Origin: Escherichia coli
GTDB taxonomy: Bacteria > Pseudomonadota > Gammaproteobacteria > Enterobacterales > Enterobacteriaceae
Direction: 5' to 3' (one strand)
DNA: 64,000 nucleotides
Assembly: GCF_011045215.1 (NCBI RefSeq)
Contig: NZ_CP049201.1
Below, piece after piece: positions 3,428 through 62,870 of the stretch. The position numbers and the translations under genes were made by a program. The notes below the pieces were generated by a model. That model saw only the letters and a program-made list of their open reading frames with translations, did no database searches and had not been told where the DNA came from. The stretch's first letter is position 1; the number at the start of each line of letters is the position of its first letter.

Positions 3428-3515
3428 GGTGAGGTGTCCGAGTGGCTGAAGGAGCACGCCTGGAAAGTGTGTATACGGCAACGTATCGGGGGTTCGAATC
3501 CCCCCCTCACCGCCA
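3428..3515 (+). tRNA. serX: tRNA-Ser (anticodon GGA), serX
   Basis: 88-nt sequence GGTGAGGTGTCCGAGTGGCTGAAGGAGCACGCCTGGAAAGTGTGTATACGGCAACGTATCGGGGGTTCGAATCCCCCCCTCACCGCCA with long variable arm and CCA end; K-12 synteny between ghrA and ycdU. Confidence 0.95.
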
Positions 3516-51598: not shown

Positions 51599-52372
51599 AT
51601 GAATAAAGCTGAAGTTCTGGAAAAAGGTTATTGGATTGAAATCAGTATTGATGCATATGCACAAAAAGTTAAGGGTATATCACGAGATGACTACCCACCA
51701 TTACGTTGTATCTCATGCGAGAAACCTGTCCATGATAGCGGATTAGTCACTCCCAATCCTGATTATAGCCCCAGATTCTCTCATTCCGCTTCACCAGAAA
51801 ATAAAGAGTTCTGTCCCCTAAGCGCAAGATCTCAACGTTTTTCTGGTTTTTCAGGTAATGAACGCTCTGCTTCAGCAGAAATTGCAGTATCTCGCCGAAA
51901 TCAATTCATGCAATTTGATAACCTCTATCGGGCCTGGGTTGTTTGTAGAGCATTAAGGGGAGGTGAAGGGAAGCTTGATCAAAAATCATTCATTCGGATG
52001 GTCAGGATCGCGGATAGTTTTGGGATCTGGCATTATAGCTATATGCCTGACTGGGGAATCCCTCTTATGCTAATGTTAATGGATAACCACCCGACACCAA
52101 ATGGTAAATCAACTTTTTTCTATTCATTAAAAAAAGAACGTGTTCGAAAAGGTGTAAAATGGCAAGATCTAAATGTCAGACTTGAAGCACATTGGGTAAA
52201 TGGTGGTAACCGCATAGTTCCAAATAAAGATAAAAAAGCTTCATTCTTGCTCACCATTCCATTTGCTAAGTCTGTTATTGATGAAATACTGAGTAAAGAA
52301 AATCTGTCATGGTGCTCAAAAAACTCTCTACCAATATTGCATTCTTTTAGCATTAGAGCTTTAACCACTTAA
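51599..52372 (+). CDS. Hypothetical protein (257 aa), AT-rich
   Basis: ORF co-oriented with 50896..51291; no motif recognised. Confidence 0.5.
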   Translation: MNKAEVLEKGYWIEISIDAYAQKVKGISRDDYPPLRCISCEKPVHDSGLVTPNPDYSPRFSHSASPENKEFCPLSARSQRFSGFSGNERSASAEIAVSRRNQFMQFDNLYRAWVVCRALRGGEGKLDQKSFIRMVRIADSFGIWHYSYMPDWGIPLMLMLMDNHPTPNGKSTFFYSLKKERVRKGVKWQDLNVRLEAHWVNGGNRIVPNKDKKASFLLTIPFAKSVIDEILSKENLSWCSKNSLPILHSFSIRALTT

Positions 52373-53738: not shown

Positions 53739-54302
53739 TCAGTTATGTCGTGGTCGGCCGCGGTTACTTTTTTCGGGAAGCCTGCTACGCCCCAGAATAA
53801 TACCGTGTTCTTTCTGATCCTGTTTCGCCAGATAGCTAAGGGCGTAACGTAAGTCGTCTACCGCAGATTTATCACTATAGTGAATTACATGATCGATACG
53901 CACCGGGTATTTATCTTTAGCCCGGCACAGGTGAAAATAACCCTCCCCTTCCGTGATCCGCCTCCAGATATCTCCCAGTTGCCTGGATATCTGATAAGAG
54001 TTCTTGTGACGTTGTCCATCCAGATAGCCGATAAAATGAATATGAAGCCCTTTGTCTGGTGTATATTCCATTACCCAGTAATATCCCGCCAACATCGTCT
54101 GGGTTTCGCTAAGTAAGCGGTACATTTCCATACACATACTGTGCTTACAGGAAAGACCAAAACTGGGCGTGTCTTTCCTGTAAGCAAAATCAATTCTGAA
54201 AGGTAACAGTTTAGAAAAACGTTGAAACAGACCTTCCATGTGTTCATTCACATCTTTCAGAATCGCGAAATTCATTTCGTAATTGGGATTGGCATTATAC
54301 AT
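53739..54302 (-). CDS. YagK/YfjJ-family (inovirus Gp2-type) protein
   Basis: LPFRIDFAYRKD ... GLHIHFIGYLDG pattern as in YfjJ-like island proteins. Confidence 0.6.
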   Translation of the reverse strand: MYNANPNYEMNFAILKDVNEHMEGLFQRFSKLLPFRIDFAYRKDTPSFGLSCKHSMCMEMYRLLSETQTMLAGYYWVMEYTPDKGLHIHFIGYLDGQRHKNSYQISRQLGDIWRRITEGEGYFHLCRAKDKYPVRIDHVIHYSDKSAVDDLRYALSYLAKQDQKEHGIILGRSRLPEKSNRGRPRHN

Positions 54303-55240
54303 TTTATAGTCCTTACTTTATAAAACTGACAGGAAAGTGGAATTACATAAATACTGAGAGTACAGAAACGCCGTACCGCGGCATTAATAAAAGAGGTAAC
54401 CAGCAGCACAGACAACCTGATAAAACTGTTTCGTATTACCTCATTACAGTAATAGGGTAATGATTCAGAATACAGTAAGACTTTCTTAAACTGAGGACCA
54501 GAACGAATTACAATAAAAAACACACCTCATATAATTGAGTTTAAGAAAGCACCATTCAATTACTTACAGGATATAATCTGATCTTCACAAAAGTCAGTAC
54601 CGGGTAGCCACAGACAACATCGCTATTAATATTGCCGTACCATTAAGTAAAAACAGAGACTCTGCAGAGAGAGCCTACAGATATTTAACCTCACAATAAG
54701 AAGATTATTTCATACAGAAAATATTATATTTACCTATGCTTATAAACTGTAACGGAGCCATAACATACTCTAATAGTGTTCCGGTACGTAACCAGTGTTA
54801 AGTGCGTACAAGACAACATAACATAACAGATTTATGTTCCCAACATTACACCACATAATTCACCATACAGCTTCCCCCCATATGCTTCACTGCGTAGTGT
54901 ATGGAGATATATGTATTACACACATACAGAATACTTAGCATAGAGAGGAGTGACATTACGATAAAAGAGACAACATAACAGATCACATAACTCCCACTAA
55001 TAATACTAATTAACCTAAATTATTTATTGAACACGAAAACAATGAAGGCCCCACCTCACCTCAGACTAAAGCCGACAATATCCTGAGCAACACTCTATCC
55101 AATAGTAAATAGTGGTTACACCAGTTATATTTACTGACTGACCTGTACCAGAGTTTTCTAATACAACGCTGACATGGTAAAGACATTAGTCTCCTCCGCA
55201 AGTAGCAGAGGAGACTATATGTACTCAACGATTAAGTCGT

Positions 55241-56692
55241 TCAGAGGTCAAAGTTAGGTGCGACACACAACGTTTTTCCCTCAATAACCGGTACAACTCT
55301 GTTTTGTTCATACAGTAAATCCAGTAACCAGTTGATTTTATCCTTTTTCCGGAAACGGTTCGGGCCACGCTGTAAAATGTCATTTTTTTTCATACAGAGG
55401 ATCCCCTTCTCAATGCAATAGCTTTTTATCCAGTTGAAAAGTTCAAGCTCCTCTGGAATGAGTCGCACAGGTACGGTCAGGGCGGAGTTGTCAAAAGTTA
55501 ACGGATTAGACAACCGCACATACTCATTACCGTACCATATTGCTAATTCTCTCGCCATTTCTGCAGTGTAAGGGGAAATCTCCCCCTCTTCACCGCTCGA
55601 ATGGTAAATAAGTCCTGCCAGTCTTGCCATATACTCTGCATTTTTAGCAGCATATTCCCGGCAATGTCTTAAAGGCCCCAATCCCCCCAGCTTCGATTCC
55701 ACATCATTGTAATAATCCGTCCAGATTCTGGCAGCCTGAGGAGAAAAGTGAAGGCAACGTCGTTCACCACTCATCGCCAGACTTTCATCAATAAGCTCAT
55801 TGATCCTCTCTTCAAACAAATCCTGATACTGTGATGAATAATTATCTCCGGTTATTATCCTTGTCCCCTGCGTTGATGTTGGTTGACACATCAAAAACCT
55901 TGCATGATGTCCTGACGTTTTCACAAGTTCTTTTTTTCGCGTACAAAAACCTTTGTGGTAAACATCAGGCTGAATCATCACCGATATCGTCAGTCTTGGC
56001 TCCTTCAAATTAATTCCGGGAGATGATTTCCTGTCGATGAAAAGAGAACCTCCATCCCACAAAGTGTTAATAATTCCCAGTTTACTCATGGCCCGGCTGT
56101 CAAAAATTACCCCCCCTTCACTGGATACAAGAGCAAAAGAGCGATTGCTATCAGAGTAATATTTTAACATTCCCTCTATCGTTGTCTCATTAAAAATTGT
56201 TCGACGTATCTGCGGCGGAACAGGAGATTTATTCAGATGCGTTTCAAGCTCTGATTCTGTTGCCTTGTAATCTTTACCGGCACGAATCTCTTTATGAAAT
56301 TTTGATTCCAGCGCTTTTTGTTTTTGCTCCCATATTTCCTTTTCTGTACTGTAATTCTCAACCAGTTTCGCGTATTCTTCCGCCAGGGCTTCATCCCTGA
56401 GATAAAATGCTTTCATAAACACTTTATCCACGGTCGTTTTCCTTTCACCGGAATCAGCCAGAATCAGAGAGTAAAGATTAACAGGCCCATGTAAATTTCC
56501 AGGTCTGCACACGTCAATCTGATTCTGACAGGCAATTGAGATCGCTGTTAATGCGGATGTTGCCACCATAGCCAAAGGTGCCTGTGTATTTTTTTGAGTT
56601 TCAATTATTGCATTTCTCACCAGCGGTGGTAGTGCATATATCGGATAAGGATTTTCTGGTGCAAGTAAGCACATAAAAGCCTCTCTTTTCAT
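55241..56692 (-). CDS. DUF3987-family protein (YfjI-like), usual partner of AlpA in P4-type islands
   Basis: 483-aa ORF downstream of alpA; start codon uncertain. Confidence 0.65.
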   Translation of the reverse strand: MKREAFMCLLAPENPYPIYALPPLVRNAIIETQKNTQAPLAMVATSALTAISIACQNQIDVCRPGNLHGPVNLYSLILADSGERKTTVDKVFMKAFYLRDEALAEEYAKLVENYSTEKEIWEQKQKALESKFHKEIRAGKDYKATESELETHLNKSPVPPQIRRTIFNETTIEGMLKYYSDSNRSFALVSSEGGVIFDSRAMSKLGIINTLWDGGSLFIDRKSSPGINLKEPRLTISVMIQPDVYHKGFCTRKKELVKTSGHHARFLMCQPTSTQGTRIITGDNYSSQYQDLFEERINELIDESLAMSGERRCLHFSPQAARIWTDYYNDVESKLGGLGPLRHCREYAAKNAEYMARLAGLIYHSSGEEGEISPYTAEMARELAIWYGNEYVRLSNPLTFDNSALTVPVRLIPEELELFNWIKSYCIEKGILCMKKNDILQRGPNRFRKKDKINWLLDLLYEQNRVVPVIEGKTLCVAPNFDL

Positions 56693-56892
56693 TAATGGGT
56701 TAGTAAAATAGCAGCAACTCCCGCTACAATAGCGAAAATAGCTGCTATTCAGACCTGATGCTCTGAGAAATACTGAGCATTTGTAGATCTGATGTTTAAT
56801 AAACCGATAAGGTTAATTCAGTGCAGACTGTATTATTTACCACGAAATATCATTCATATTTCTCATTCTTAATACCTCCAGAAATTATTTCA

Positions 56893-57090
56893 CTAATACC
56901 TTTCCCCCGGTCTTTTCCCTTTCTCCAGAACCATAGTGTAAATATTAACGGCCCCACGTAAATTTCCGGGGCTGCATACGTCAACCTGATTCTGACAGGC
57001 AATTGACATCGCTGTTAATACTGACATTGCAACCAGAGTCAGAGGTACTTGTTTATTGTATTGAGCTTTAATTATTGCCTTCCCTATCAT
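56893..57090 (-). pseudogene. Duplicated 5' fragment of the DUF3987 gene
   Basis: 65-aa ORF ...LTLVAMSVLTAMSIACQNQVDVCSPGNLRGAVNIY... paralogous to residues ~35-80 of the 55241..56692 product. Confidence 0.6.
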
Positions 57091-57316
57091 TGATGGTCAC
57101 GTATATACTGAATACGGCATATCCGGTTTGATGTAAGACATAAATGCTTCCTTTTTCGTAATACGTTTCGGTTATAGCAGCAATTACCGCTACAATAGCG
57201 ACAATAGCTGCTCTTTCAACAATGAATGCTGGAAATTCTGTTTATCAATTAAACTTCTGGCTAAATTGTTCTTATGCTTCTTTTTCCTCCTGAGGTGATC
57301 ACGTGATGACAAAAAC

Positions 57317-57625
57317 TTATCTGCTCATGGTCATATCTGAAGAAAGCGTATGTCGCACTTCGTCATTAACACCTTTGACTGCTGATCTGGCAGGTACAGT
57401 ATGTAAAGTAAGCCATTCGTCAATAGCTGATGAACGCCAGCCCACAGAACCACTACCAAGACGTACCGGCCTGGGGAAGGTTGCATCGTAGTATTTCGAT
57501 AACGGATTCATTTTTTCGTAAATTGTCGAACGAGATATACCTAACAATTGGCTCAGTTCAGGCATCCGTAAGATGCGTGAAGGAGTCCAGCAGTATCCGG
57601 ATTGATCTGGCATTTTATCCCCCAT
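57317..57625 (-). CDS. alpA: AlpA-family phage-type transcriptional regulator (excisionase-like)
   Basis: LRMPELSQLLGISRSTIYEKMNPLSKYYDATFPRPVRLGSGSVGWRSSAIDEWL matches the AlpA HTH core; start uncertain (ORF extends to 57697). Confidence 0.75.
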   Translation of the reverse strand: MGDKMPDQSGYCWTPSRILRMPELSQLLGISRSTIYEKMNPLSKYYDATFPRPVRLGSGSVGWRSSAIDEWLTLHTVPARSAVKGVNDEVRHTLSSDMTMSR

Positions 57626-58725: not shown

Positions 58726-60543
58726 ATGTATAATTTTATCACTATAATGTATGATGTCTTTTCATGTTTTGGTGTTCTGGCTAAAAACCAGAATACCCGT
58801 GACATCCGAAATATTAAAAATTTTTCCTCACATCAACATTCACTGGGCGACATGTTTGATGAATTAATAAACATTATTGATAAAGAACAAGTATTGAGTA
58901 CAGAACAACGAAAAGTTATATTTAGGAGATATGAAGATCTCTATGTTAAGCTAATGCACTATTCTGTTTTTACAGACAAAACACATCAAATAATAAAACA
59001 AAAATATTTTAATGACATTGTACCAATGATTCTCGCACTCGACATCAGGAACACATATCGCCCGGATAATGAGATGGCATTTTACTATCATATTCATTCT
59101 TTTCTCACTCAGATACCGGATAATGAGGATGATATATATCATGCTGCAAGGACATATCTGCGAAATTACATTAAGTTATGTTTATCCGGATACACACCAG
59201 CGAATGCGCATTTCAAAGATATCTTTGATGGCGTATATGAATTCATTCGTAATATTCGCAAAAACAGTACACCAGGAAAAACAAAACTTACCGCAACTAT
59301 CAACACATGCAAAGAAACCTGTAAACATCTGCTTTATTTAAGTAATGAAGACAAGGAAAAAATAATTTCTGACTTAGATAAAATTCAAGTTGCATGTTAT
59401 TATCTCACCATATTACTGGCTTTCGAAAGACGAACTTCATTAACAAGCGCCCTGGCAACTTTATATAAAATGCTGATAAGCGAAAGAGAAGTTTCAGAAT
59501 ATGAATGCCAGTTATTATATTTAACCAACCCAATAGATGTAATGAATATACTGAACAAACACATATATTACTTTCCTAATGAGAACTCACCATTTTATAC
59601 ACTGAAAATTGACAGTGCATTATCGTGGGAGGCCATTGACGCAATACGAGACTATAGTATTTCTGATATTTATCTTTATCCTGAACAAAAAACAATAAAT
59701 TGTGTCGTTGAGATTGAAAACATTGTCTTTGGCGGTTACATTTATACATTGAACAACGGCGTCACATTACAAAACATAGAAAACACTTTAAAAGATTCTT
59801 CATGCCATTATGTCTTAAATGGCTATACAGAATTTGTTAACTGTTTGATACAACTTACTTCAGGAAAGACTGAAAGTGTTCATCGCACCATCAATAAACT
59901 GAACTATGAGAAATTACCTTTTGGATTTATCATTGCCGCGTTTGCTATACTAAAGATAGCATTTAAAATAAAATTCAGTAAAAATCATGTAAATATCCGA
60001 GCATTATTAAATGACATCAATTATTTTATGACTTATCAGGGCGAGTCCATTAACCTTATTTCACTGGATCACGAATACCCAGAGTCCTGTCTTCAAAATG
60101 ACACAAACACATATTTATTAGGAAGAGTAATATTTCTGTATAACTCAATGATTTATAAGTTCATAAACTGTCAGGAACATGAAACCAATAACATTCACTC
60201 AGCTATGATAAATAACCTATTACAGGAAGTTGATATAGCCCTTGGTAAAATAAATAACATTATAGACAGCAGAAATATATCAACCCCCCATGAACTAGCA
60301 AATATTCTTACCCGCGAAAAAATACTTACAACACGGGAAAAAAAAGGAAACCTGATAAGCCTGTTTGATGGATTCACTTTATTCCATTGTGTTGGAATGA
60401 TAACCTTTCTTATCCATTATCTCAGAACACCTGAAGAAAAAGTTGAAAATATATTTATGTTATATGGTGCAGATAAAAACAATAAACTACGCAGAAGACT
60501 GATTTATGACGCACTAGGAATAATTCAGTCTCAGCAGGAGTGA
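58726..60543 (+). CDS. Large hypothetical protein (605 aa), very AT-rich, no recognised domain
   Basis: Long uninterrupted ORF with Asn/Ile/Tyr/Lys-rich composition; convergent with the integrase gene. Confidence 0.6.
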   Translation: MYNFITIMYDVFSCFGVLAKNQNTRDIRNIKNFSSHQHSLGDMFDELINIIDKEQVLSTEQRKVIFRRYEDLYVKLMHYSVFTDKTHQIIKQKYFNDIVPMILALDIRNTYRPDNEMAFYYHIHSFLTQIPDNEDDIYHAARTYLRNYIKLCLSGYTPANAHFKDIFDGVYEFIRNIRKNSTPGKTKLTATINTCKETCKHLLYLSNEDKEKIISDLDKIQVACYYLTILLAFERRTSLTSALATLYKMLISEREVSEYECQLLYLTNPIDVMNILNKHIYYFPNENSPFYTLKIDSALSWEAIDAIRDYSISDIYLYPEQKTINCVVEIENIVFGGYIYTLNNGVTLQNIENTLKDSSCHYVLNGYTEFVNCLIQLTSGKTESVHRTINKLNYEKLPFGFIIAAFAILKIAFKIKFSKNHVNIRALLNDINYFMTYQGESINLISLDHEYPESCLQNDTNTYLLGRVIFLYNSMIYKFINCQEHETNNIHSAMINNLLQEVDIALGKINNIIDSRNISTPHELANILTREKILTTREKKGNLISLFDGFTLFHCVGMITFLIHYLRTPEEKVENIFMLYGADKNNKLRRRLIYDALGIIQSQQE

Positions 60544-60730: not shown

Positions 60731-61933
60731 TTATTTATTCACAATTTGAGACATCACATAATCCGCCCATGCCTGCATCATCGGTACACGCTGCTCCAGT
60801 AGATCAGTGCGATGATATGCCGCCTCAACCTTATTTTTCAGCGTATGAGCGAGCGCCCTTTCCGCCAGATCCCGCGAATACCCCTGTTCACTACACCAGT
60901 CCCTGAATGTTGAGCGAAAACCATGTGCCGTGGCAACTCGCCCCGGAATGTCACTGACGGCTTTCTTTTTACGCAGAAAACTTGTCAACACCATATCGGA
61001 AAGGATCTGCTGCTTTCTGGGTGAAGGGAACACCAGTTCATCATGCAGGCCACGTATATTTTCCAGAATGTAAATAGCCTGCCGGGATAAAGGAACACGA
61101 TGCTGTAGCCTAGCTTTCATTCTTTCTGCAGGTATAGTCCATACCCGCTTATGAAAATCAATTTCAGCCCAGCGCATTCCCCTGGCTTCGCCCGAGCGAG
61201 TTGCTGTAAGTATCACCATTAATAACAGTGCGCGGGTAACATTATAAGGTTCATCACTATACACACTGGTCGCCACAAAAAGCGGTAACTGCCTCCAGGG
61301 CATTGCGGGTTGGTGTTCATCACGTCCTCTTGTCTGCTGAGGAAGCAAATGGTCAACCACATCAACAGGATTTGCCACACAAAAACCGTGCGCCCATCCC
61401 CACTGCATAACAACATGAATGCGCTGTTTAACCCGGCTTGCCGTTTCTGACAAGGTTAACCAGACTGGACGCAATGTTTCTGCCACGTCCGCAGCCGTAA
61501 TCGAATCCAGCGTTTTTGCTCCCAGTTGAGGAAACGCGTAATTCTCAAGCGTCGATAACCACTGCCTTACATGCTTTGGATTTTCCCATCCAGGAGACAG
61601 TTCTGCATGTACACGCCTGGCTGCATCGGCAAATGTTGGGATAACGACTTTCTCAGATTCAGCCTTTTTAATCTCCAGAGGATCATCACCTGCAGCAAGT
61701 TGCTCTCGCATTATCCGGGCAGTACGTGCAGCTTCAGCAATACTGACCTCTGGGTAAGTTCCCAATCCAGCATTACGTCTTTTTTGTGTCACCGGACTTA
61801 CATAACGAAAAACCCATTTCCCCCGCCCCTTTACTGAAGAAGGATGAAGGGTCAGTCCGGTAATTCCCCCATGGGGCAATGGTTTGTCATCAGGTTTGAT
61901 ATGTCTTGCTTTCGTATCCGTCAATACTGCCAT
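60731..61933 (-). CDS. P4-type tyrosine integrase
   Basis: 400-aa ORF with catalytic R...HxxR...Y core (ATAHGFRSTFRDW; C-terminal tyrosine region) adjacent to the tRNA-3'-end repeat. Confidence 0.9.
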   Translation of the reverse strand: MAVLTDTKARHIKPDDKPLPHGGITGLTLHPSSVKGRGKWVFRYVSPVTQKRRNAGLGTYPEVSIAEAARTARIMREQLAAGDDPLEIKKAESEKVVIPTFADAARRVHAELSPGWENPKHVRQWLSTLENYAFPQLGAKTLDSITAADVAETLRPVWLTLSETASRVKQRIHVVMQWGWAHGFCVANPVDVVDHLLPQQTRGRDEHQPAMPWRQLPLFVATSVYSDEPYNVTRALLLMVILTATRSGEARGMRWAEIDFHKRVWTIPAERMKARLQHRVPLSRQAIYILENIRGLHDELVFPSPRKQQILSDMVLTSFLRKKKAVSDIPGRVATAHGFRSTFRDWCSEQGYSRDLAERALAHTLKNKVEAAYHRTDLLEQRVPMMQAWADYVMSQIVNK

Positions 61934-62149: not shown

Positions 62150-62870
62150 ATGCGCCTATAAGGCTCTCTTACCAGCCGCGCCCTAACAGGCGCACACGAT
62201 CTGACATTTGCATCCAACTTCGTTACTTACGGCCCGTAAACGGGCTGCCCGGATAGGGAATCGATAACTGCTCTCCCATTTCATCCTCTTCAAGCTGGTG
62301 CTTTATGTAATCCTGTATCTTCGCCGTGTTCTTACCCACCGTATCGACGTAGTACCCTCTGCACCAGAACTCCCTGTTCCTGTATTTGAATTTCAAATCC
62401 CCAAACTGCTCATAAAGCATCAGACTGCTTTTCCCTTTCAGATATCCCATAAAGCCGGATACGCTCATTTTGGGCGGGATCTCCACAAGCATATGGATAT
62501 GATCTGCACAGCATTCAGCTTCAAGAATCCGTACGCTTTTCCACTCACACAGCTTTCTCAAAATACTGCCTATTGCTCTACGCTTCTCTCTGTAGAACAC
62601 TTGTCTTCGGTATTTTGGCGCAAAAACTATGTGATATTTACAGTTCCATCGGGTGTGCGCTAAGCTCTTTTCGTTCCCCATTGGGACCCCCTTTTGATTT
62701 CTTGTTTGACACTTGCAGTTGCCAGACCGCAAGGTGTTTTAACAAATCAAAAGGGGTTTTAATAACTGGCTCAAAGCTGAAAGCTTTCCGGAACCCCCAG
62801 CCTAGCTGGGGGTTTTCTGTGCACAAGAAGAGCCCGTACGAAAGTACGGGCTTTTTTTTCGTATATTGCA
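62150..62870 (-). mobile_element. IS200-family insertion sequence (approximate ends)
   Basis: Contains a Y1 HUH transposase gene and a hairpin agcccgtac-gaaa-gtacgggct followed by T-run at 62831..62861; ends estimated from typical ~0.7 kb size. Confidence 0.7.
62223..62681 (-). CDS. tnpA: IS200 transposase TnpA (HUH Y1 family)
   Basis: MGNEKSLAHTRWNCKYHIVFAPKYRRQ...ADHIHMLVEIPP... near-identical to recalled IS200 TnpA. Confidence 0.9.
   Translation of the reverse strand: MGNEKSLAHTRWNCKYHIVFAPKYRRQVFYREKRRAIGSILRKLCEWKSVRILEAECCADHIHMLVEIPPKMSVSGFMGYLKGKSSLMLYEQFGDLKFKYRNREFWCRGYYVDTVGKNTAKIQDYIKHQLEEDEMGEQLSIPYPGSPFTGRK

Follow-up and report, generated by a model that had tools for sequence, protein, structure and literature searches.

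The Reps of SaPIs bind through a C-terminal winged helix to hexanucleotide iterons, which lie beside rep in opposed orientations with at least two per side (PMC9371898). The origin (ori) of the Escherichia coli PICI EcCICFT073 has been validated by plasmid maintenance (PMC6092414). The only defined AlpA binding element (ABE), that of Pseudomonas aeruginosa, is GGGACGN5GGTA (PMC7969949). DUF3987 proteins were predicted earlier to be mobile-element helicases (PMC5862659). The iterons of EcCICFT073 are TCTACC hexamers at a 9-nt spacing, which occur as direct pairs or triplets as well as inverted sets. Phage P4 is a satellite of related make-up, with a P4-type integrase, an AlpA/Vis-type regulator and a primase-helicase, the alpha protein, which carries a C-terminal winged-helix origin-binding domain. 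Like the locus described here with its two palindromes, P4 has iterons at two separate sites (ori and crr), but these are kilobases apart and both required, the iterons are octamers (TGTTCACC) and the alpha protein is a D5-type helicase. The core origin site II of SV40 and the papillomavirus E1 site are perfect palindromes of two direct followed by two inverted repeats, on which the initiator-helicase assembles as a double hexamer. These differ in belonging to eukaryotic viral SF3 helicases with an origin-binding domain other than a winged helix, and in their pentamers at a 6-nt spacing and unrelated sequence. In the literature searched on yfjI, CP4-57, AlpA and DUF3987, neither the palindrome nor a YfjI origin was found described.

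In the window, that is, the whole 64-kb stretch of E. coli DNA analysed, the genes of the region in question are all encoded on the minus strand. An AlpA-family helix-turn-helix (HTH) gene (alpA, 57317-57613; Pfam Phage_AlpA PF05930, E 4.8e-19), whose annotation in NC101 and ZYB62 is that of a helix-turn-helix regulator, is the upstream neighbour of a repeat that leads into yfjI (55241-56674; 477 aa; Pfam DUF3987, E 5e-84). The start codon of yfjI was set by a conserved ATG, a Shine-Dalgarno sequence and the PGAP annotation. The gene is intact and shares 98 % identity with a cluster of 5661 sequences. Between alpA and yfjI, CGCTACAATAGCG is present twice, at 56722-56734 and 57188-57200, and a search of the window that allowed one mismatch gave no further site (expected count 0.07; two or more occurrences in 0/100 shuffles). 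This result agrees with a previous sequence-only reading of this DNA, in which a 13-bp palindrome was placed in each of two copies of the region. The 13-mer is real, but it is only the core of a larger, imperfect palindrome of ~43 nt made up of GCTATT/AATAGC hexamers. Palindrome A (56707-56749; gene strand AATAGCAGCTATTTTCGCTATTG TAGCGGGAGTTGCTGCTATT) lies beside the intact gene and ends 33 nt before the yfjI ATG, and palindrome B (57173-57215; gene strand GAGCAGCTATTGTCGCTATTG TAGCGGTAATTGCTGCTAT) is proximal to alpA. The window hexamers read GCTATT-GCTATT / (T)GTAGC-A(G/A)TTGC, with the third and fourth degenerate in both copies (TGTAGC; AGTTGC/AATTGC), and the palindrome centre is 3 nt (CAA), compared to ATTAAT in K-12-type sites. 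Palindrome A is the only cluster of four GCTATT/AATAGC hexamers in the 64 kb. Folded as single-stranded DNA, palindrome A yields -12.0/-11.5 kcal/mol (z -5.6/-5.9) and palindrome B -11.5/-10.9 kcal/mol (z -4.3/-4.5). A separate palindrome of four repeats (54434-54462) belongs to the Gp2-like gene downstream of yfjI.

The palindromes belong to direct repeats on the minus strand (56421-56762 and 56898-57230) with a period of 465-467 bp, which share 253/345 identical positions (73 %) on local alignment. With an alignment score of 841, against a mean of 76 and a maximum of 117 for shuffled sequence, the proposal that the 5' end and upstream region of the DUF3987 gene are present twice is borne out, and the similarity is not one of short chance matches. 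A repeat search of the window resolved two blocks, 56458-56690 versus 56925-57157 (233 nt, 75 %, spacing 467) and 56676-56749 versus 57142-57215 (74 nt, 74 %, spacing 466). The period between the units is 465-477 bp, of which ~405 are homologous. Copy 1 comprises palindrome A and the 5'UTR and extends ~85 codons into the intact yfjI, while copy 2 comprises ~15 nt upstream of the palindrome, palindrome B, the 5'UTR and a yfjI 5' fragment with its ATG at 57141. The peptide quoted in the earlier reading (MSVLTAMSIACQNQVDVCSPGNL) was located in an ORF at 56893-57090 on the minus strand. The N-terminal fragment does recur upstream, but, in correction of that reading, as a pseudogene: codon 15 is a stop, and 10 nt are missing relative to the intact gene (translation MSYIKPDMPYSVYT*PSMIGK...), and it is a dead 5' fragment.

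Within the repeat, conservation is highest in the palindrome. Between the two window copies, it is identical at 36/40 positions (90 %), compared to 18/32 (56 %) for the stretch between palindrome and ATG and 182/244 for the coding part. Likewise, among the fragment copies 36-38/40 palindrome positions are identical, against 80-88 % for the decaying coding part. This extra conservation is measured over 40 positions, which leaves some room for the view that the palindromes are inactive here, as inherited relics in a decaying island, with the repeat purely a scar. Also in keeping with this are an IS1 pseudogene adjoining alpA in this degraded serX/ycdU island, the pseudogene fragment in copy 2 and the degenerate third and fourth hexamers of both copies. 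The intact state of yfjI, its close identity to a large sequence cluster and the excess of palindrome identity over the adjacent 32 nt argue against it, as does the retention of the element across genera in which YfjI is down to 30-43 % identity, and we consider loss of function improbable.

The description of the repeat as tandem-like holds in part: it is direct, but not a clean tandem. Within the junction between the copies (56763-56897, minus strand), ~60 nt (~56780-56875) match neither copy, and a simple tandem duplication, with head-to-tail units and no foreign DNA between them, was rejected as these ~60 nt match neither yfjI nor the HTH gene. The ~22 nt of the junction proximal to copy 2 are still yfjI-like, which is clearest in locus L002, and no further likeness to yfjI follows. 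The ~60-nt part holds a Shine-Dalgarno sequence and a 9-codon mini-ORF (56837-56866; MRNMNDISW*), and the ~70 nt that lead up to palindrome A are similar to the 3' terminus of the other class of HTH gene (score 114 versus a shuffle maximum of 105; 0/1000). Derivation of the junction from the 3' flank of the window alpA was tried and discarded (score 86 versus a shuffle mean of 98). The junction sequence is found in 1337/5426 E. coli genomes. Among the 40 listed of 1,340 matching E. coli records it has no other genomic context, being in each case either adjacent to the fragment or within unannotated sequence of an island of this type.

The fragment stems from one old event common to diverged E. 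coli islands, since the fragment copies of the window and of loci L002, L003 and L005 cluster together, the intact copies cluster with those of the single-copy islands L004 and L006, and the duplicated arrangement is present in ~1024/5426 E. coli genomes. The duplication would be a structural scar, left either by a partial tandem duplication or by recombination between two diverged island copies. The duplicated stretch may have begun in the 3' end of the HTH gene upstream and reached approximately codon 90 of yfjI, which would place a second palindrome, and with it a 5' portion of yfjI now in decay, between alpA and the intact gene. In a database of 5.8 billion proteins, the only homologues retrieved for the fragment allele are 52-94 aa long, with no full-length parent among them, which is compatible with either recombination between alleles or in situ duplication. 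In the window lineage the alpA module may later have been exchanged, with the junction at the palindrome edge; likeness to the thrW-type islands stops at 57212, the edge of palindrome B.

The hexamer arrangement extends well beyond these islands. Among 112 distinct yfjI-family loci in Proteobacteria, opposed hexamer arrays were called in 87, compared to 2/112 after shuffling, with two to four hexamers per arm at a spacing of ~9 nt, in opposite orientations, flanking the yfjI-family genes. A generic scan for two direct followed by two inverted repeats returned 36 real and 2 shuffled matches. The thresholds for the array calls were calibrated on shuffles. The arrays are therefore associated with yfjI. 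Related loci contain perfect sets of two direct and two inverted repeats, and up to four plus four. A near-identical palindrome (TGCTATTTCyGCyATTAATAGCGGAATAGCA) is found in relatives, and the same element lies upstream of yfjI proteins of 30-43 % identity in K-12 CP4-57 and in at least 14 enterobacterial genera. In the Enterobacterales the site is 5' of yfjI, 33-70 nt ahead of the ATG, while the arrays of the relatives precede the ATG by 55-125 nt or follow the stop codon at 2-60 nt. Those immediately past the yfjI stop codon include loci L044, L056, L068, L082, L073 and L085, with the L056 array situated between convergent genes. In many beta-proteobacterial primase-helicase fusions the array also follows the stop codon, and a central spacer separates 3-4 iterons on one side from 3-4 on the other. 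In Pseudomonas, Shewanella, Undibacterium and Serratia arrays occur 200-370 nt upstream of an alpA gene (~1,250 nt in Shewanella). In a low-power pattern scan of IMG/VR, 4/7 GCTATT array matches adjoin yfjI and the other three are probably Ala-Ile coding coincidences; of the GCGATT arrays, the Variovorax type alone is real. Taken by sequence, the 43-bp array of the window suggests a compact enterobacterial form of an iteron site that accompanies yfjI-family helicase genes across Proteobacteria.

The AlphaFold2 model of YfjI (pLDDT 90.8) finds its best Foldseek PDB matches in MCM2-7, archaeal MCM and ComM. The C-terminal domain modelled alone (pLDDT 92.5) matches winged-helix folds at TM 0.6-0.7, with weak Foldseek E-values (0.018 or higher). 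The models portray YfjI as an MCM-like AAA+ helicase that carries a winged helix at its C-terminus (residues ~407-473), and the enterobacterial YfjI is without a primase domain. The predicted protein would thereby combine the hexameric-helicase-type ATPase and the C-terminal winged helix of an initiator. The winged-helix residue equivalent to Gln435 varies together with the hexamer: Gln occurs with T at hexamer base 3 in 57/61 loci, and Arg with G in 20/21. This rule holds in 80/86 loci and is broken in six, which include Lys with T (twice) and Gln with GCAAT (L032), and the remaining exceptions look like false array calls. Parsimony places ~17 changes of residue class at the Q435-aligned position on the tree, with many independent switches. 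By this co-variation, the iteron sequence appears to be specific to the cognate YfjI.

On balance, we favour the palindrome as a candidate YfjI binding site and a compact iteron origin in the style of SaPIs and PICIs, which was probably duplicated as a recombination scar. The C-terminal winged helix of YfjI would read the hexamers, Gln435 may contact the A:T pair at hexamer position 3, and the opposed hexamers could let two helicase rings load head-to-head. By analogy with the Rep-ori modules of SaPIs and PICIs, the site would be the replication origin of the excised island, where we infer both the binding of YfjI and the origin function. As in SaPI and other Gram-positive PICI origins, the window site consists of opposed hexanucleotide iterons, at least two per side (the third and fourth degenerate), directly adjoining the gene of a helicase with a winged helix, which is here predicted (PMC9371898). 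Beta-proteobacterial YfjI loci match that layout almost exactly. Differences are that the SaPI Reps are Rep1, Rep2 and PriRep5 and the helicase here is DUF3987/MCM-like, and that the candidate window site is a compact 43-bp palindrome 5' of the gene, with a 3-nt centre and no AT-rich core. The gene order int - alpA - replication gene - iterons is shared with EcCICFT073, the initiator of which is instead a D5_N/DUF5906/Pox_D5 (SF3-type) primase-helicase, with a different hexamer sequence and an ori that extends over ~230 bp with AT-rich stretches, 3' of the gene. A central AT-rich melting region is absent from the compact enterobacterial palindromes, the flanks of which are slightly and inconsistently AT-enriched, and the longer spacers of the beta-proteobacterial arrays are not AT-rich. 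K-12 CP4-57 is reportedly lost once AlpA has induced its excision, a hint that it replicates autonomously only weakly or not at all. A wider proposal, which we regard as tentative, is that the upstream palindrome is under selection as a second iteron site and works together with the one next to the gene, for example as a crr-like enhancer of initiation or through titration or handcuffing that limits replication of the excised island. In this proposal the GCTATT arrays and the Gln/Arg switch would represent the first origin and recognition code for DUF3987 helicases, including yfjI of K-12 CP4-57.

The enterobacterial position 5' of yfjI would also suit an autoregulatory or activator-dependent operator. 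The sequence-only reading had proposed a duplicated promoter/operator region answering to AlpA, in which AlpA binds the palindromes and switches on yfjI and the downstream genes. In EcCICFT073, AlpA does activate its own promoter as well as PICI genes, and excision and replication set in when it is overexpressed (PMC6092414). Furthermore, the palindrome of the Enterobacterales lies between alpA and yfjI, shortly before the ATG, and the arrays of Pseudomonas, Shewanella, Undibacterium and Serratia are upstream of an alpA gene. However, one palindrome accompanies two AlpA classes with different recognition helices, namely classical AlpA (K-12, L010, L015, L025) and the FPxRKSIGxKSCGW class (L008-L021), and in the loci compared the site does not track the AlpA variant encoded beside it. 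The hexamer instead co-varies with a YfjI residue, many arrays begin just past the yfjI stop codon, once between convergent genes, and several array loci are without a detectable alpA within 2.5 kb. No consistent sigma-70 promoter is present either, with none in K-12 and 6 matches in the window versus 4.7 expected. In the scan of the window, K-12 and L008, consensus matches reached 9/12 at best, not above shuffles, and were not conserved between copies or loci; the consensus was that of sigma-70, and activator-dependent promoters may lack a -35 element. The P. aeruginosa ABE is likewise a cis element tied to an AlpA-family protein, but it is unrelated in sequence, not palindromic and without a hexamer array (PMC7969949). 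Together, these observations make an AlpA operator unlikely.

Far less probable still is a role at the RNA level, in which the palindrome would fold into a hairpin within the alpA-yfjI transcript and serve as terminator/attenuator or 5'UTR regulator. Copy 1, which is followed by TATTTTAC, was flagged by the terminator scan, and the internal-loop positions of the window copies can give G.U pairs on the sense strand only. Copy 2 and the K-12-type sites, however, lack a U-tract, and as an intrinsic terminator only copy 1 gave a weak match (7 pairs, 3 GC), with none for copy 2, K-12 or L008; terminator matches in these scans did not exceed those in shuffles. In a comparison of 12 orthologous sites, the positions outside Watson-Crick pairing comprise 10 G.T, 7 A.C and 7 other, and this absence of strand bias speaks for a site in duplex DNA and against an RNA hairpin. 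The arms also carry 9-nt periodic direct repeats, for which a hairpin has no need, and some arrays have long central spacers or lie in non-transcribed convergent gaps. An Rfam scan of 52-64 kb returned no match on the repeat at the gathering score, the sole match on the palindrome being MIR7526 (24 bits versus a gathering score of 110; E 0.31). A nick site or origin for rolling-circle replication by the downstream inovirus-Gp2/YfjJ-like protein is equally remote: such origins are typically hairpins and a YfjJ/Gp2-like gene lies downstream of yfjI in most enterobacterial loci, but arrays occur in many loci without a YfjJ-like gene in the flanks, among them most of the beta-proteobacterial ones and L024, L041, L042 and L056. 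In addition, a separate palindrome accompanies the Gp2-like gene, and the co-variation is with YfjI. An integrase arm-site was rejected because the enterobacterial site is ~3 kb from attL.

The duplication alone is an ordinary scar. DUF3987/YfjI is, however, the replication gene of many integrase-AlpA islands and phage satellites, among them the islands of the CP4-57/CP4-6 type, which occur in approximately one quarter of E. coli genomes, the PICMIs and many proteobacterial elements. The locus also cautions that conserved palindromes near alpA are not always AlpA operators. Together with the correlation of one residue with one base, the hexamer array provides a testable prediction of where replication of these islands may start and of the specificity of initiator for origin, and therefore of incompatibility between co-resident islands.

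The sequence from alpA (57317-57613, minus strand; Pfam Phage_AlpA, E 4.8e-19) to yfjI (55241-56674, minus strand; Pfam DUF3987, E 5e-84) contains two copies of the yfjI 5' end and its upstream region. A repeat search matched 56458-56690 to 56925-57157 (75 %) and 56676-56749 to 57142-57215 (74 %), at spacings of 467 and 466 nt, respectively, while local alignment extended the repeat to 56421-56762 and 56898-57230 (73 % identity over 345 columns). The alignment score of 841, where shuffled sequences reached at most 117, confirms the duplication proposed in the sequence-only reading as more than short chance matches. The 13-bp palindrome CGCTACAATAGCG noted there lies exactly at 56722-56734 and 57188-57200, its only occurrences in 64 kb (expected count 0.07), but forms only the centre of a larger imperfect palindrome (56707-56749 and 57173-57215). 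Both strands of this larger palindrome fold well as single-stranded DNA (-10.9 to -12.0 kcal/mol; z -4.3 to -5.9). No other part of the repeat is as conserved: the copies share 36/40 positions here, compared with 18/32 over the adjacent 32 nt and 75 % across the coding part. The upstream copy is a pseudogene: translation from the ATG at 57141 gives MSYIKPDMPYSVYT, a stop at codon 15 and then PSMIGK..., and a 10-nt deletion lies close to the Walker-A-like SGERKT motif. For the intact gene, the conserved ATG at 56674 is the most likely start codon, given its GAGAGG Shine-Dalgarno sequence and agreement with the PGAP annotation.

The genes around the repeat are encoded on the minus strand, with a 605-aa ORF opposite, and are transcribed in the order P4-type integrase (60731-61933, minus), alpA, the repeat region, yfjI and two inovirus-Gp2/YagK-YfjJ-like genes (minus). 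The 605-aa ORF (58726-60543, plus; annotated as a hypothetical protein) is located with an IS1 pseudogene between the integrase gene and alpA and is conserved in this island type; neither it nor a 257-aa ORF (51599-52372, plus) has a Pfam match. By comparison with its close matches NC101 and ZYB62, the region forms the integrase-bearing end of the island, adjoining dgcT in the former and ycdU in the latter; the integrase gene is located at the ycdU-side end. The sole tRNA gene in the window, Ser-GGA (3428-3515; presumably serX), is ~57 kb away from it, and a strong Rfam match to STnc490 (146 bits; 62691-62814, minus) lies ~760 nt past it.

The arrangement of an HTH gene, the fragment and yfjI occurs in ~1024/5426 complete E. 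coli genomes, including diverged thrW-associated islands (78-86 % DNA identity), while the islands L004 and L006 have one copy only. A tree built from the ~345-nt units places every fragment copy in one group and every intact copy in another, together with the single-copy islands, which indicates a single old duplication that was inherited afterwards. Independent indels and stop codons are found among the fragment copies. The repeated unit begins ~70 nt upstream of the palindrome, inside the 3'-terminal part of the HTH gene of L004 type (score 114; highest shuffle score 105), and runs to around yfjI codon 90. The wording "tandem-like" holds, as ~60 junction nt gave no match when compared and the duplication is thus not cleanly tandem. 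The junction includes a nine-codon mini-ORF (MRNMNDISW-stop; 56837-56866, minus) with a conserved GGAGG Shine-Dalgarno sequence, both shared with the thrW-type islands L002 and L003. A search of a 5.8 billion-protein database gave no complete gene carrying the fragment-type N-terminus, and the repeat may therefore stem from either in-situ duplication or recombination between two diverged islands. Classical alpA has taken the place of the upstream HTH gene in the window, and homology to the thrW-type islands ends at 57212, the palindrome outer edge, which suggests that the palindrome is also a recombination or module boundary. The module with classical AlpA and that with the FPxRKSIGxKSCGW-type HTH of the thrW islands (L002/L003) meet the same downstream sequence precisely at this edge (57212-57216).

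A site homologous to the palindrome (TGCTATTTCyGCyATTAATAGCGGAATAGCA) precedes yfjI by 55-125 nt in K-12 CP4-57 and at least 14 enterobacterial genera, where YfjI is just 30-43 % identical to that of the window. The site comprises four GCTATT/AATAGC hexamers, two direct followed by two inverted, at 9-nt spacing. Its non-Watson-Crick positions (10 G.T, 7 A.C and 7 other) have no strand bias, which argues for a duplex DNA site rather than an RNA hairpin. The duplicated region had been read as a promoter/operator region, possibly AlpA-responsive; AlpA activates PICI genes and the 5' position is compatible with regulation, but the palindrome is found downstream of two different AlpA-family classes and a role as AlpA operator is not supported. 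Among 112 distinct yfjI-family loci, drawn from one genome per species and IMG/VR, hexamer arrays were called in 87, as compared to 2/112 shuffled controls. They lie upstream of alpA in Pseudomonas and Shewanella, between alpA and yfjI in Enterobacterales, very often start 2-60 nt past the yfjI stop codon, and in one locus (L056) occur between convergent genes. Beta-proteobacterial primase-helicase fusions have 3-4 direct and 3-4 inverted hexamers flanking a central spacer. In some Nitrosomonas loci (L076, 3914-3996; L077, 2937-3048), direct GCTAAT iterons reach into the final codons of the helicase gene, and these putative binding sites of the protein thereby partly set the sequence of its C-terminal tail (…ANANPASFAN…). 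Some enterobacterial yfjI loci without GCTATT arrays (L023, 2414-2450 and 3946-3985; L013/L014, ~2018-2104) have unrelated long perfect palindromes at equivalent positions (e.g. GTATCAGTTGTG…CACAACTGATAC), possibly alternative sites. A second four-repeat palindrome in the window (54434-54462; cATTACc-ctATTAC-tGTAAT-gagGTAATac, 8-nt spacing), conserved in L001, L002 and L004, lies ~130 nt upstream of an inovirus-Gp2/YagK-YfjJ-like gene (53739-54302, minus) and possibly serves as a binding site for the product of this gene.

YfjI is modelled with high confidence as an AAA+ protein (pLDDT 90.8; best PDB matches MCM2-7, archaeal MCM and ComM) with a disordered linker and a C-terminal helix-helix-helix-hairpin domain, which, folded alone (pLDDT 92.5), matches winged-helix DNA-binding domains (TM 0.6-0.7). 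The residue aligned with Gln435, two positions ahead of a near-invariant Gly-Pro, tracks hexamer base 3: Gln accompanies T (GCTATT, GCTAAT, GCTAC) in 57/61 loci and Arg accompanies G (GCGAC, GCGATT) in 20/21, with ~17 changes of residue class on the tree. This pairing agrees with the usual Gln-adenine and Arg-guanine contacts. This correlation is the main evidence that the YfjI winged helix would read the hexamers, and such predicted binding is considered more probable than an origin function.

That the YfjI iteron site is the replication origin of the island is considered reasonably probable. The Reps of SaPIs, helicases that load themselves, use a C-terminal winged helix to bind iterons of five or six nucleotides adjoining rep, with at least two per side in opposite orientation (PMC9371898), and the yfjI arrays follow the same iteron logic. 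In the E. coli PICI EcCICFT073, the ori, validated by experiment and located directly 3' of pri-rep (PMC6092414), likewise has hexamers (TCTACC; comparison locus L102, 12005-12240) at 9-nt spacing in both orientations. Its initiator, however, is a D5_N/DUF5906/Pox_D5 protein and not DUF3987, for which a helicase role had previously only been predicted (PMC5862659). Given its different helicase family (DUF3987), its compression to a single palindrome without an AT-rich centre and its position 5' of the gene, the enterobacterial yfjI site is placed outside the SaPI/PICI ori family. YfjI binding at the 5' site could also be autoregulatory. On the best explanation, a compact YfjI iteron site, probably the origin of the island, was copied in a single old event, leaving a pseudogene behind. 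The duplication itself is unremarkable. It led to a prediction about origin and specificity that is moderately interesting and can be tested directly.
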